In this document: piece after piece, positions 31,280 through 36,919 of the stretch
Position numbering within the stretch: the stretch's first letter is position 1
Layout: the number at the start of each line of letters is the position of its first letter
Source of the DNA: Deltaproteobacteria bacterium
Lineage (GTDB): Bacteria; Myxococcota; Kuafuiibacteriia; Kuafuiibacteriales; Kuafuiibacteriaceae
Assembly: GCA_040218735.1 (NCBI GenBank)
Contig: JAVJQW010000019.1
Location: 320,001 to 384,000, forward strand
Length of the DNA: 64,000 bases
Reading direction: 5' to 3'
Translations under genes and position numbers: made by a program
The notes under the pieces: generated by a model
Seen by the model: only the letters and a program-made list of their open reading frames with translations
The model's database searches: none
What the model was told of the DNA's origin: nothing

Positions 31280-31678
31280 TCAGACGGTGATTTCGAGCAG
31301 GGCTCCACCGCCCTGTTCGGCGATCTTCCGCGCGGCGCTGAGCGCCTGTTCCGACGGAATCTGTCGAATGACGTCGCCCGAGCTCTTGTCGATGACTTGA
31401 ACTACGGCGCGACCACTCTCCTCATCAATGGCGAAGTGCAGGTTCGGATGTCGCTGATGTGCGGCTTCGGCGAGGCGCTCGACCACCTCTTGGAGCGCCT
31501 CGGGCGCCAGCGGATCGTTCTCCTGCCCAGGTGATGCCGGTTCGAATCCGGAAGCGGCGGCGTGATCCGACGAGGGCGCGACCGACGTCGACGCCTTGGC
31601 GGCGGGCGACGTCCGCGTCGCGGCCAGGTCGGGCCGCGCTCCGGTGGGCCTGGGGCCCTTGAAATCCAGCTCGCTCAT
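31280..31678 (-). CDS. flaG: Flagellar protein FlaG
   Basis: LHFAIDEESGRAVVQVIDKSSGDVIRQIPSE. Confidence 0.93.
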   Translation of the reverse strand: MSELDFKGPRPTGARPDLAATRTSPAAKASTSVAPSSDHAAASGFEPASPGQENDPLAPEALQEVVERLAEAAHQRHPNLHFAIDEESGRAVVQVIDKSSGDVIRQIPSEQALSAARKIAEQGGGALLEITV

Positions 31679-31701
31679 GCGAAGTACCTAGGCACTCGAG
31701 T

Positions 31702-31726
31702 GCCCCGGAGCATCACGCTCCGGGGC
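31702..31726 (-). terminator. GC-rich hairpin 3' of the second flagellin (no U-tract; stabiliser or partial terminator)
   Basis: gccccggagc-atcac-gctccggggc, a perfect 10-bp stem. Confidence 0.55.
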
Positions 31727-31746
31727 GCCCGAGAGTTTTCGACTGA

Positions 31747-33189
31747 TTACCCGAGCAGCGACAGGGCCGACTGCTGCGAGACGTTCGCCTGCGCGAGCAT
31801 TGCCGTACCGGCCTGCTGCAGAATCTGGCCACGCGTCAGGTTCGCCGTCTCCGTCGCGAAGTCCGCGTCCATGACGCGAGACCGAGCGGCGGAGATGTTC
31901 TCCGAGACGTTGGTCAGGTTCGAGATGGTCGAGTCGAGACGATTCTGGATGGCACCGAGGTCGGCGCGCGCGTTGTCGATCGCAGTGAGCGCCGCGTCGA
32001 TCGTCGAGATCGCCGAGTTCGCGCCCGTCTGCGAGCCGATGTCCACGGACGCCACGTTCGACAGCGTGGACGAGGTCCCCGCGAGGAGCGACGCATCCGC
32101 GGCATCGATCGAGAACGACGCCGAAGAGCTCAGCGAGACCGAGCCGCCGACGACGCCGGAGGTGTTGCCACCTTCCGTCAGGGTCGCGGCACCACCGGTC
32201 GCCCCGGTGATCGACATCGAATCGTTGCCTGCGGTCGCGTTGGCGAAGGTGTCGATCGCGATGTCGTAGCCTTCTTCCTGAACGAGCGAGATCGTCGAGC
32301 CGTTGGACGTCGCGGTGATGCCCGTCGAAGCCGCCTGGCCGTTGATCGCGTCCGCGAGCGACTGCAGGTCGCTGGCCGAAGCCACCGACGCAGAAATCGC
32401 CACCGCCGAGCCGTTGCCCGTGAGGTTGAACGAGACGTTGCCGGTCGAGACGGCGCTGAGCGTCGCCGTGGTCCGCGCGTCCGCCTCCACACCCGTCGAC
32501 GAGCTGACCGCGTTGACCGCCGCCGCGATGGTGTAGGCGCTATCGTTCGCCGCGATCGCCGCGGTGGTGCCGGAGCCGAGCTCACCCGAAATCACCAGAC
32601 CGTTCGCGTCCGCCGCAGCGCCGTTGTTGGTCGAGCCCGCGACGGCCGTCGACATCGTGCCACCGGCGACCGCGTGGTTGCCGAGCGACGTCGAACGGGT
32701 GCTCGAGAGCGAGATGGTGAGGTTCTGGTTGGCTTCGGAGCCGATGTGGAACGACTGGCCGCTGAACGTACCGTTCAAGAGATCCTTGCCGTTGAACTGC
32801 GTGGTGTTGGCGATTCGATCGAGCTCCGCCTGAAGCTGCACGACCTCCTTCTGCAGGTTCGCCCGGTCCGCGGACGAGTTCGTGTCGTTCGCGGCCTGGA
32901 CGGAGAGGTCACGCATGCGCTGCAGGATGTTGGTCGACTCCTGCATCGCGCCTTCCGCCGTCTGCGCCAGGGAGATGGCGTCGTTCGCGTTTCGCGCCGC
33001 CTGGTTGAGGCCGCGGATCTGCGAGTTCATGCGGTTGGCGATCGCGAGACCGGCCGCGTCGTCCTTGGCGCCGTTGATGCGCAGACCGCTGGACAGCCGC
33101 TCCATCGCGGTGCCGAGGGTCTTCTGCGAATTGTTCAACGAGCGCTGCGCCCGAAGCGACATGATGTTGGTGTTGATGGTCATGGCCAT
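31747..33189 (-). CDS. fliC: Flagellin (copy 2)
   Basis: [58 protein letters not shown] upstream. Confidence 0.98.
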
Positions 33190-33481
33190 GGTCGAATTCC
33201 TCCGTGAAGCCACGCCCGACCCGTGAAGACGGATCGGTGCGTCCACTCGTCTGTGAGTGCACGGTCCGCGGCGCCTTCCCACACGTGGGATCGACGCCGC
33301 GTCCGCGGCAGTTTCAAAGGCGGGTGTTCAACTGCTGAACGTCCGCGTGTTCACGGGGGGAGTTCGGGCCGAAGCGCGGAACCGAATAGAGGGTCTCAGC
33401 CGATTCTCAACTGGTGACGCACGCTGCCTCGCGGCGATCCGCGGTGCGCCCCTCGGCGAGACATGTTTCGTGGCTTCTGTA

Positions 33482-33790
33482 TCAGGCCGTTTCGGCGTAG
33501 CAGGACATGGCCTGCGCGGACGCCTTGGATTGGGACAGCTGATCTTCCAGCCGCAGGCGGTCCGTCTTCACGAGGTTTGCGAGCTCGTGGTCGGTGCGAA
33601 GGATCGTGTCGATGCCTTCGGCGATCGTGGAGGCGATGTCGGTGACGGTGTAGTCCGCGAAGAACTTCTCGAGGCGGACGTGACGCTCGTGATGCTGCTC
33701 AGCGACCTCGACCCAGCGACCCTGCCGAGCCATCTCGAGCATGTTCGACGACTGCTCGAGGATCGAGTCCCAATCGGCGGAGCGCGTCAC
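33482..33790 (-). CDS. fliT: Flagellar chaperone FliT
   Basis: 102 aa, coupled to fliD; SSNMLEMARQGRW, ILRTD.EL, C-terminal Tyr. Confidence 0.75.
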   Translation of the reverse strand: MTRSADWDSILEQSSNMLEMARQGRWVEVAEQHHERHVRLEKFFADYTVTDIASTIAEGIDTILRTDHELANLVKTDRLRLEDQLSQSKASAQAMSCYAETA

Positions 33791-35199: not shown

Positions 35200-35247
35200 G
35201 TCCTCAGCTCACTCGGTCAACTTCATCTGCGCATGAGCGCGTGTGCG

Positions 35248-35298
35248 AAAAAGAAACGGGATCGCCCCCGGAGCTCCCTCGGATCCCCGAGGGCGATC
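35248..35298 (-). terminator. Rho-independent terminator after flagellin copy 1
   Basis: On the minus strand, a gatcgccc...gggcgatc stem followed by ccgtttcttttt. Confidence 0.75.
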
Positions 35299-35311
35299 TT
35301 CAGACCGCGTC

Positions 35312-36766
35312 TTAGCCCTGCAGCAGCTGGAGCGCCGCCTGCGGCAGCTGATTGGCCTGAGCCATCATCGCCGTGCCGGCCTGCTGGAGGATCTGAGCCT
35401 TGGTCAACGCCGCCGTTTCCGCGGCGAAATCAGCGTCGACGATTCGCGACTTCGCGGCCGTGAGATTCTCGGCCACGTTGGTCAAGTTGCTGATCGTCGA
35501 TTCCAGACGGTTCTGGATCGCACCCAGGTCTGCGCGTGTGTCGTCCACGAAGGTGAGCGCCGCGTCGATCGTGTCGAGGGCCGAGTTCGCCAGCGTTGCC
35601 GAGGCGATCGAGACCGAGGACACGCTCGTGAGCGAGCTCGAGTTGGCCGCGCCGATCGACGCGTCGATCGCGTCGATCGAGAACGCCGAGGACGACTGGT
35701 ACGTCACCGCACCGCCGACCACGCCGCTGACGTTGCCACCTTCCGTGAGGGTCGCCGCGGCGCCGCTCGCACCGGTGAGGTCCATCGAATCATTGCCCGC
35801 CGTCGCGTTCGCGAAGCCGGTGATTGCGATGTCGTAGCCTTCCCCGTTGATGAGCTCGACGCTGTTCCCGTTCGACACGGCCGTGATGCCGGTCGTTGCG
35901 GCCTGCGCGTTGATCGCCGAAGCGAGCCCCTGCAGGTCGTTGACCGAAGCCACGTTCGCGCTGATCGCGACCGGAGAACCCGCGTTCGCACCGGCCAGGT
36001 TGAACGAGACCGTGCCCGCCGCCGAGAGGTTGTCGAGCGTCGCGACCGTGCGCGCGCTCGCCGAAACTCCGGTCTGGTTGGTCACGGCGTTCACCGCCGA
36101 CGCGATCGTGAACGCACTGTCGTTCGCCGCGATCGCCGCCGTCGTACCCGAACCGAGAGAACCCGAGATCACCAGCCCGTTCGCGTCCGCCGCCACGCCG
36201 TTGTTCGTGGAGCCCGCCACCGCCGTCGTCATCGTGCCCGACGCCACGGTGTGGTTGCCGATCGCCGTCGTCCGCGTGCTCTGGAGCGACACGGAGACGT
36301 TCTGATTGGCTTGCGCACCGATGTGGAAGGTCATCCCGTTGAACGTGCCGTCCAGGAGGTTGCGCCCGTTGAACTGCGTGGTCGTCGCGATGCGATCGAG
36401 CTCGCTGAGCAACTGGGTCACTTCCTTCTGAAGGTTGGCGCGGTCCGCATCGGAGTTCGTGTCGTTCGCCGCCTGGACGGCGAGGTCACGCATCCGCTGC
36501 AGGATCGTCGTTGCCTCTGACATCGCCCCTTCCGCGGTCTGCGAGAGCGAGATCGCGTCGTTGGCGTTGCGCGCCGCGATGTTGAGGCCGCGGATCTGCG
36601 AACCCATGCGGTTCGCAATCGCGAGCCCGGCCGCGTCGTCCTTCGCGCTGTTGACGCGAAGGCCGGACGACAGCCGCTCCATCGAGGTGCTCAGGGACAT
36701 CTGCGAACCATTGAGCGAACGCTGCGCGCGCAGAGCCGAGATGTTGGTGTTGATCACGAGTGCCAT
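35312..36766 (-). CDS. fliC: Flagellin (copy 1)
   Basis: [55 protein letters not shown]. Confidence 0.98.
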   Translation of the reverse strand: MALVINTNISALRAQRSLNGSQMSLSTSMERLSSGLRVNSAKDDAAGLAIANRMGSQIRGLNIAARNANDAISLSQTAEGAMSEATTILQRMRDLAVQAANDTNSDADRANLQKEVTQLLSELDRIATTTQFNGRNLLDGTFNGMTFHIGAQANQNVSVSLQSTRTTAIGNHTVASGTMTTAVAGSTNNGVAADANGLVISGSLGSGTTAAIAANDSAFTIASAVNAVTNQTGVSASARTVATLDNLSAAGTVSFNLAGANAGSPVAISANVASVNDLQGLASAINAQAATTGITAVSNGNSVELINGEGYDIAITGFANATAGNDSMDLTGASGAAATLTEGGNVSGVVGGAVTYQSSSAFSIDAIDASIGAANSSSLTSVSSVSIASATLANSALDTIDAALTFVDDTRADLGAIQNRLESTISNLTNVAENLTAAKSRIVDADFAAETAALTKAQILQQAGTAMMAQANQLPQAALQLLQG

Positions 36767-36892
36767 CTGTTTCCTCCTTGGAAACCGAGCCGCCCTCGCG
36801 GACGGCCTCTTCTTCTCGTCCGTGAGTCGAAGTCAGTGTCGCTCGTACCCTGCGGCGTACTGCCGTGAGCCGGTCGCGTCGTTTCACTGGTC

Positions 36893-36919
36893 CAATCGGA
36901 GGCGGGAGGATCAGGTTGA
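36893..36919 (-). promoter_or_regulatory. Sigma28 (FliA)-type promoter of flagellin
   Basis: Minus strand TCAA-N15-TCCGATTG versus consensus TAAA-N15-GCCGATAA, about 125 nt upstream of the ATG. Confidence 0.7.

Follow-up and report, generated by a model that had tools for sequence, protein, structure and literature searches.

Introduction

Myxobacteria are the textbook case of gliding, non-flagellated bacteria. In Pseudomonas aeruginosa, the late flagellar genes are laid out as flgK-flgL ... fliC-flaG-fliD-fliS-fliT, and a further run of flagellar and chemotaxis genes has the order flhA-flhF-fleN-fliA-cheY-cheZ. In Escherichia coli and Salmonella, the fliC-fliDST region stands apart from the flg and flh regions, all of them serving one flagellum, and lateral replacement of fliC alleles is well known. 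Here we analyse a stretch of 64,000 nucleotides (C41:320001-384000, hereafter the window) from a Myxococcota-like genome of 11,606,468 bases in 70 contigs (96.5% complete, 4.65% contaminated), which carries a compact block of flagellar filament genes. In an earlier note, drawn up from the letters of this DNA alone, the block had been described as a stand-alone filament module. Our analysis indicates that it very probably (about 85% by our estimate) holds the genes for the late, filament-building stage of a complete flagellum of the conventional type; filament assembly and swimming of the organism are predicted on the basis of the genes.

Flagella in myxobacteria have been in print since 2008, and the system described here is of a known kind. 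A 55.7-kb flagellar cluster was reported in that year for Anaeromyxobacter dehalogenans 2CP-C, together with swimming in strain K, and in the sections of the report drawn on here the cluster is described as lacking fliJ, flgN, fliT, flgA, flgJ and fliK (PMC2330069). The view taken in the earlier note, that characterised myxobacteria are devoid of flagella, is outdated in the light of that cluster. Excerpts of later publications report that uncultured Myxococcota genomes encode flagellar assembly (10.1101/2021.07.06.451402) and that flagellins of uncultured Myxococcota are strongly expressed (PMC11937823), and a 2026 preprint, in the portion consulted, lists Myxococcota among 'motile phyla' (10.64898/2026.06.16.732483). 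The text of the Sandaracinus amylolyticus genome paper (PMC5010890) contains no occurrence of 'flagell' or 'swim', and the 'flagell' passages in the accessible parts of PMC11821767 and PMC10576062 do not deal with Myxococcota flagellar genes. A literature search of limited extent turned up no paper describing a split, mosaic arrangement such as the one presented below.

Results

Late flagellar genes in the window

Five adjacent genes, in the order fliC-a, fliD, fliT, fliC-b and flaG, occupy the minus strand from position 36766 down to 31280. A Pfam scan of the eight open reading frames (ORFs) of this block matched five to flagellar families; the three remaining ones, which overlap on other frames or strands, had no match. 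All five genes are open, with their profiles covered end to end, and the G+C content is about 69% throughout.

The first gene, fliC-a (35312..36766, minus strand), encodes a flagellin of 484 amino acids (aa) with a central domain (Pfam Flagellin_N 1.1e-48, Flagellin_C 5.3e-28, and Flagellin_IN), and the ribosome-binding site AAGGAGGA precedes its ATG. A resemblance to the Pseudomonas b-type flagellins, seen by eye in the earlier note, is supported by matches to solved proteins: the best solved match of FliC-a was the 'B-type flagellin' 5wk5 (E 8.8e-97, in a single stretch of residues 1-482 on 1-487), which we take to be a Pseudomonas aeruginosa entry, and the solved B-type flagellins 5wk6 and 8sug also aligned over the full length (E ~1e-96). 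The second flagellin gene, fliC-b (31747..33189, minus strand; 480 aa; Pfam Flagellin_N 3.7e-48, Flagellin_C 9.1e-27), was given its start at the ATG at 33189, behind GGAGGA, within an ORF called as 31747-33282. Both flagellins match positions 1-137 or 1-138 of the 139 of Flagellin_N and positions 1-86 or 2-86 of the 86 of Flagellin_C, and keep the conserved N- and C-terminal D0/D1 regions around a variable middle.

The filament cap gene fliD (33787..35199, minus strand; 470 aa) matches Pfam FliD_N (4.7e-24) and FliD_C (4.7e-48), and residues 2-459 of its product align with residues 4-462 of solved 467-aa caps (E 1.7e-45). The start of fliT (33482..33790, minus strand; 102 aa), the gene for the FliD chaperone, shares 4 bases with the fliD stop; its product matches Pfam FliT at 1.3e-9, with 39.2 bits where the cut-off is 29.5. 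The block closes with flaG (31280..31678, minus strand; 132 aa), matched by Pfam FlaG at 7.6e-19 and by the NCBIfam model at 1.3e-16, under the cut-off of the latter. Between fliC-a and fliD, at 35257..35270 on the minus strand, lies a terminator-like hairpin with a T-run. Its position is suggestive, while the count is not significant, with one such site in the scan of 31000-37300 against 3.5 expected in shuffles. The flagellin chaperone gene fliS (23006..23428, plus strand; 140 aa; Pfam FliS 2.4e-28) is the sole FliS match genome-wide and lies about 8 kb from the block on the opposite strand.

Thus the gene content read in the earlier note (two fliC, fliD, fliT and flaG, with a distant fliS, all intact) is confirmed by Pfam matches running end to end. 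The same is true of the absence of other flagellar genes from the 64 kb, as searches for FHIPEP, Flg_bb_rod, FliG_C, MotB_plug, FlgM and MotA_ExbB gave no hit in the window save the TPR protein beside fliS.

The rest of the flagellum is encoded on other contigs

A search of all contigs located the parts missing from the window, with flhA, fliF, flgE, flgK and fliA on contig C59 and motAB on three others. All five Flg_bb_rod matches of the genome, FliG, one FlhA and FlgL fall on C59, and one of the seven FHIPEP matches of the genome lies within the flagellar cluster of that contig (C59:374379-409900; ORFs identified by family scans). The cluster begins with flgE, flgD, a 994-aa ORF, a 185-aa ORF, fliI, fliH, fliG, fliF, fliE, flgC and flgB, followed by divergent genes for a TPR protein and a sigma-54 activator. 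It continues with fliM, fliN, fliO, fliP, fliQ, fliR, flhB, flhA, flhF and a MinD-like flhG, then fliA, cheY, cheZ, two rod genes, flgA, flgH, flgI and flgJ, and finally flgM, which lies between flgJ and flgN, with flgN, flgK and flgL.

In terms of parts, C59 supplies the rod (FlgB, FlgC, FlgF, FlgG), the hook (FlgD, FlgE), the rings (FliF, FlgH, FlgI, FlgA), the switch (FliG, FliM, FliN), the export gate and ATPase (FlhA, FlhB, FliO, FliP, FliQ, FliR, FliH, FliI), the junction proteins FlgK and FlgL with their chaperone FlgN, and a FlgJ with rod-binding and M23 domains. Its regulators are FlhF, FlhG, FliA (sigma-28; 199 bits against a cut-off of 190), FlgM (over the Pfam cut-off) and the sigma-54 activator, in addition to CheY and CheZ. 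The dedicated chaperones are all present in the genome: FliS for flagellin, FliT for FliD and FlgN for FlgK/FlgL. Three adjacent MotA_ExbB and MotB_plug pairs, on C66, C23 and C61, are available as stators; for the C66 pair, the best-scoring families are PomA and MotB, under the curated cut-offs.

C59 ends 460 bases past flgL, inside a dispersed repeat resembling an insertion sequence (IS; C59:409900-410360). At least 15 other contigs have copies 80-98% identical to it at their ends or close to them, so the end of C59 is an assembly break at an IS-like element. The repeat accounts for many of the contig breaks, and it may have contributed to the scattering of the late flagellar genes.

Some further loci were noticed during these searches. 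Directly beside flgE, at C59:372846-374237, there is a bufferin-type pair of the ribosomally synthesised and post-translationally modified peptide (RiPP) class, made up of a BufA2-like precursor and the MNIO maturase BufB, which scores 358 bits where the cut-off is 310. The MotA/MotB-type pair at C61:29665-32402 adjoins a 562-aa frame with a weak FliG_C match (E 8.7e-4, under the cut-off), and may represent a stator-like motor that is paired with a FliG-like protein and lies away from the flagellar cluster. Six more FHIPEP (FlhA/SctV) genes, one of them partial, were found at C23:323241, C41:146084, C70:143580, C38:16372, C9:330842 and C16:73260, the one on C41 being 172 kb from the window. 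Several non-flagellar type III systems seem to be encoded in the genome. These six further FHIPEP genes fit a preprint which notes, in the extract at hand, that FliO occurs in type III systems of Myxococcota other than the flagellar one (PMC12248157).

Basal-body and junction genes follow kinship

Flagellin_N, FliD and the P-ring protein FlgI were each matched in 16 of the 19 other genomes of the same family (f1). Across the phylum, FlgI was found in 126 of 401 sampled genomes, 97 of 316 good-quality ones and 62 of 154 genera. FlgI of the genome studied is 78% identical to that of its genus-mate G001, 51-59% to those of a sub-clade of family genera (g1, g2, g5, g7 and g11), and 40-48% to gammaproteobacterial loci.

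All trees were quick, unrooted searches with support from the Shimodaira-Hasegawa-like approximate likelihood ratio test (SH-aLRT) only, and do not give the direction of a transfer. In the FlgI tree (96 rows), the sequence of the genome studied is sister to that of G001 (support 100), and both lie inside a group of 12 family rows from the five sub-clade genera (99). All fifty phylum rows, joined by one Desulfopila row, are split from 45 gammaproteobacterial or other Pseudomonadota rows (100). In the FlgK tree (34 rows, for which 22 of 44 named rows were used), the eight sub-clade rows form one clade (100), outside a 19-row gammaproteobacterial clade (100). FlgL and FliS are most similar to those of family relatives, FliS being 35-42% identical to its counterparts there, whose gene directly follows fliD or fliT. 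Taken together, the two trees and the likeness of FlgL and FliS imply that the core of the machine follows kinship.

The five other family rows of the FlgI tree (g4, g6, g8, g10 and g12) are placed with rows from different families of the phylum. The genomes G004, G006, G008, G010 and G012, also of family f1, have another flagellar type, with flagellins of 274-282 aa and with FlgI and FliD that group with phylum families f5, f15, f19 and f24. Judging from these three proteins, two flagellar lineages exist within one family.

The arrangement of the late genes is where the genome studied stands apart. In 11 relatives (8 from the family and 3 from other families of the phylum), these genes are contiguous, as flgI-flgJ-(flgN)-flgK-flgL, a gap of 1-5 kb, and fliC(-fliC)-flaG-fliD-(fliT)-fliS, and the same late-gene order was found in the four gammaproteobacterial loci examined. 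In the genome studied, the late genes are spread over three sites, with the filament genes in a different order, so that the arrangement fliC-fliD-fliT-fliC-flaG, called shuffled in the earlier note, is indeed so with respect to all 15 loci. A flank search of 17 loci (13 relatives and 4 gammaproteobacterial) matched FliS only and yielded no counterpart of the flanks of the block or of fliS, leaving the route of the rearrangement and the insertion sites untraceable.

Filament, cap and CheZ genes depart from kinship

FliD of the genome studied shares 47-50% identity with its counterparts in G007, G015 and G011, and 37-44% with gammaproteobacterial FliD (Steroidobacteraceae and others). With any other hit among the 401 genomes sampled from the phylum, including those of the rest of the family, the identity is at most 34%. 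In a FliD tree of 67 rows, built with every second named row (28 of 56), these four family sequences (99) nest in a 31-row set together with 25 gammaproteobacterial or other Pseudomonadota rows (96). A single FliD clade for the phylum was rejected by the approximately unbiased (AU) test under the LG+C20 mixture (cost 43 log-likelihood units, p 0.0025) and under LG+G4 (cost 38 units, p 0.049), using 36 rows that comprised all 13 of the family, every third of 26 others of the phylum and every fourth of 56 named ones. The FliD frames of G002, G005, G013, G016, G017, G018 and G019 (g2, g5) are 683-809 aa long, against about 450-470 aa elsewhere, and form a clade of their own.

The two flagellins of the block are 74% identical in protein and 75.5% in DNA, and are sisters in the trees (98 in the core tree and 100 in the full-length tree). 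As each other's nearest relatives, they point to a duplication within the lineage. Flagellins of the sub-clade are 466-497 aa long with a central domain, and all 30 other flagellins collected from the phylum are 273-295 aa. In a full-length tree of the long flagellins (31 rows, including every third named row of 430-560 aa, 20 rows), g1, g7 and g11 group with Desulfobulbia (89), and g2 and g5 fall inside a gammaproteobacterial set (98). A single clade for the 11 long flagellins of the family was rejected by the AU test (p 0.0029). CheZ, the CheY phosphatase, was found in 9 of the 401 sampled phylum genomes, all in genera of the sub-clade, and in none of the 382 outside the family; among 14 control genomes it was detected in one, E. 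coli.

Host origin and soundness of the assembly

All 50-kb pieces of C41 and C59 lie within a tetranucleotide distance of 0.0072 or less, the genome median being 0.0049 and the 95th percentile 0.0090. The MYXO-CTERM sorting signal is described as specific to Myxococcota, and it was matched above the cut-off 52 times in the genome, twice on C41 and three times on C59, and never in the 14 control genomes. From their composition and these signals, both contigs look native to one myxobacteria-like genome. The markers that the earlier note had placed within the window itself were not recovered there: MYXO-CTERM had no hit in the window at E<=1e-3, both C41 matches lying elsewhere on the contig, and the Glt-like likeness came down to the protein at 23442-25574, whose TPR resemblance to GltE and Tgl is weak and far under the cut-offs. 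Genome-wide, the best GltE score was 160 bits and the best Tgl score 87, each against a cut-off of 225, and these models also hit 12 of the 14 controls below the cut-off.

The block or part of it is contained in 22 public runs from 10 studies, four of the runs having been aligned with it, and runs with block DNA include mixed-culture, sponge, aquaculture and biofloc samples. In run X3, from another study, one contig bridges flaG/fliC-b-fliT-fliD (31608-34418, 17 differences) and another bridges fliD-fliC-a (34404-35536, 2 differences). A contig of run X9, about 96% identical, spans 32587-36190 with 129 differences and the same gene order. The odd order fliC-b/fliT/fliD/fliC-a therefore exists in independent data, and the mis-assembly considered in the earlier note can be set aside for this part of the block. 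The left border of the block towards the GFA gene is tiled by overlapping pieces, with no single spanning contig. Most pieces of the RNA run X22 match at only 90-95% and are probably derived from other organisms, and that run gives no basis for naming a habitat.

Surroundings of the block and of fliS

The neighbours of the block are unrelated genes, with metallo-beta-lactamase-fold and SNF2 helicase genes beyond fliC-a, and no glycosylation island beside fliC was seen among the neighbouring genes. About 0.5 kb upstream of fliC-a, a minisatellite extends over 37276-37987, with units of ~56-77 bp that can also be read as periods of 137-147. It is followed by a run of GCC triplets (38059-38245). 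No credible gene lies in this region, the overlying 572-aa ORF being of low complexity. Between GFA and flaG, an element of ~80-87 bp at 31145-31243 has copies 82-94% identical in tandem arrays elsewhere, e.g. C41:17487-17816 and C4:35025-35264, and contigs of other runs break or skip at this element.

Three unrelated genes, encoding a transglutaminase-like protein, an ArsP permease with HMA domains and GFA, fill the interval between fliS and the block. Fourteen bases downstream of fliS begins the gene for a 710-aa protein with TPR and Methyltransf_12/25 domains (23442..25574, plus strand), and a cyclophilin gene also follows. From its adjacency to fliS alone, the TPR-methyltransferase protein is a possible flagellar accessory; no homologue was found beside fliS in the relatives examined. 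Just upstream of fliS, in the same direction, two overlapping small ORFs (117 and 172 aa) at 22067-22935 matched no Pfam or NCBIfam family. The 172-aa ORF falls in 'secreted protein' Atlas clusters whose commonest phylum is Myxococcota (scores 0.96-0.97).

Discussion

Predicted assembly and expression

If the textbook model of Salmonella and Pseudomonas applies, completion of the hook and basal body would lead to export of FlgM, and the FliA thus freed would direct transcription of the late genes. In such a scheme, fliC-a would probably be monocistronic, because a hairpin with a T-run follows it, fliD and fliT would be translationally coupled, and fliC-b-flaG would be transcribed late. FliS would bring flagellin, and FliT would bring FliD, to the FlhA/FlhB export gate. 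FliD would then cap the FlgK/FlgL junction, with FliC-a and FliC-b polymerising beneath the cap.

Several observations weigh against reading the block as the working late set of a conventional flagellum. On the side of expression, the strict sigma-28 consensus had no match in the window, and a relaxed pattern occurred in one of 11 upstream regions, that of a relative, and before neither fliC; the sole hint of RNA is a 279-nt metatranscriptome contig covering 35254-35532 with one difference, for which carry-over of DNA is possible. Some parts are faint: FliT scores 3.1e-6 by the NCBIfam model, under the curated cut-off, as do FlhF, CheZ, the PomA-like stator and FlgM (NCBIfam model) under theirs. 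The 994-aa ORF at the expected fliK position has no family match, and a clear FliJ was not found, the 185-aa ORF there having weak FlbB/MgtE_N matches only. As to relatives, three of the 19 family genomes are without the genes, and G001, of the same genus, has no flagellin or FliD match, although this genome is 75% complete and does have FlgI and CheZ. Finally, the name Myxococcota is based here on the MYXO-CTERM counts and the Atlas labels of a neighbouring ORF. A scan of the block for sigma-70 promoters found none, fewer than in shuffles.

Weighing the alternatives

That the set is an unused relic, intact by chance or rarely expressed in an organism moving by gliding or pili only, appears improbable. 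It would agree with the lack of a promoter consensus and with the three family genomes without the genes, which indicate that loss occurs, as well as with the remark, in the part of the Anaeromyxobacter 2CP-C report used, that swimming is 'not commonly observed' in this strain, which has a full cluster (PMC2330069). It would, however, leave about 45 genes in at least four loci all open with full-length profile matches, a set that all five sub-clade genera have kept and in which FlgI, FlgK and FliS track kinship, and flagellins of uncultured Myxococcota that, according to an excerpted metatranscriptome study (PMC11937823), are among the highly expressed genes. Less credible still is the proposal of the earlier note that a stand-alone filament kit was repurposed as an adhesin, decoy or prey-contact fibre exported by a non-flagellar type III system. 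Six of the seven FHIPEP matches do lie outside the flagellar cluster, and the block is apart from the other flagellar genes, but a complete flagellar set is present on C59, a finding that the earlier note itself had named as a refutation, and the genome contains the cognate export apparatus, junction proteins, chaperones and FliA/FlgM. Moreover, both flagellins retain full D0/D1 ends, FlgI and FlgK follow kinship, and the same genes adjoin flgK-flgL in 11 of 11 relatives. The least plausible explanation of all is an artefact of assembly or binning, by which the block or C59 would come from a co-assembled gammaproteobacterium. The contamination estimate of 4.65% and the gammaproteobacterial identity of the nearest outside FliC and FliD could be taken that way. 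The block nevertheless sits within a contig of 441 kb, with over 56 kb to each end, the tetranucleotides of C41 and C59 are typical of the genome, both contigs carry MYXO-CTERM proteins, the ORF just upstream of fliS belongs to Myxococcota-labelled clusters, independent runs repeat the gene order, and the closest FliC, FliD, FlgI, FlgK, FlgL and FliS are all those of family relatives. The other option raised in the earlier note was a flagellated Myxococcota lineage. As far as gene content goes, it is supported by the C59 set, by the stators and by the presence of flagellar genes in most family members and in roughly a third of the phylum genomes sampled.

A further possibility adds to the conventional flagellum rather than competing with it, and we lean slightly towards it: the flagellum would be a mosaic, in which the filament cassette (fliC, fliD, perhaps flaG and fliT) and cheZ are of lateral origin and the basal body, junction and FliS are native. 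The exchange would have taken place in the ancestor of g1, g7 and g11, and separately in g2 and g5. FliD identities, tree and AU tests speak against phylum monophyly, the flagellins show a split in length together with a discordant full-length tree and AU test, CheZ is confined to genera of the sub-clade within the phylum sample, and no such discordance is seen for FlgI and FlgK. Several considerations temper this. The FliC D0/D1 core (272 columns; every fourth named row, 20 of 80) did not reject phylum monophyly (p 0.51), the constrained tree being slightly better. The outside FliC sequences were the 80 best matches to FliC-a, which biases the donor side towards likeness, and the groups put to the test were chosen with the first trees already in view; the trees themselves are quick and unrooted. 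FliC and FliD also evolve fast, and a shared domain architecture may inflate their likeness. Lateral exchange of the fliC-fliD cassette of the sub-clade with Gammaproteobacteria or Desulfobulbia thus comes out, on these comparisons, as marginally the better supported option. The fuller scenario, a mosaic flagellum in g1, g2, g5, g7 and g11 with a native basal body, junction and FliS and a lateral filament, cap and CheZ, whose cassette was later moved away from flgK-flgL and reshuffled, possibly via IS elements, we regard as evenly balanced. The notion in the earlier note of a horizontally acquired set thus survives in part, as fliD and the long flagellins look exchanged, yet they appear as the working filament of a native basal body.

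Relation to known flagellar systems

A full, intact flagellar regulon in a very large (11.6 Mb) myxobacteria-like genome helps to correct the non-flagellated picture of these bacteria. With flagellar genes in about a third of the sampled phylum, swimming may be common among its uncultured members, which bears on how such predators reach prey in water, sediment, sponge or aquaculture habitats, the kinds of place from which runs with this DNA derive. A cross-phylum swap of the outer filament only would, if true, be a modest but neat example of modular flagellum evolution. Two modest features stand out: the late genes are dispersed and reshuffled in this genome and, within one sub-clade, the filament cassette and cheZ were probably exchanged across phyla.

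The texts reporting flagellar assembly genes and flagellin expression in uncultured Myxococcota (10.1101/2021.07.06.451402 and PMC11937823) give, in the parts considered, no locus anatomy or phylogeny, unlike the present analysis. Like Anaeromyxobacter dehalogenans 2CP-C, as far as the available portion of its description goes, the organism studied is a myxobacteria-like one with a near-complete flagellar gene set; in contrast to the one coherent cluster of 2CP-C, its late genes are dispersed, and flgN, fliT, flgA and flgJ are present.

As in Escherichia coli and Salmonella, the genes for the filament, its cap and the chaperones are separated from the clusters that encode the hook-basal body and the export apparatus. 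Here, however, fliS is split from fliD-fliT, a second flagellin gene and flaG follow fliT, and the separation is a derived state, not seen in the 11 relatives examined. The late locus of Pseudomonas aeruginosa has the same late gene set; the solved 'B-type flagellar hook-associated protein 2' (5fhy) is among the matches of FliD, and C59 holds flhA-flhF-flhG-fliA-cheY-cheZ in that order. The genome studied differs from Pseudomonas aeruginosa in its Myxococcota-like host, its two flagellins, the order fliC-fliD-fliT-fliC-flaG and the lack of a visible glycosylation island, and also in the placing of fliS, 8 kb off on the opposite strand, and of the block, which does not share a contig with flgK-flgL.

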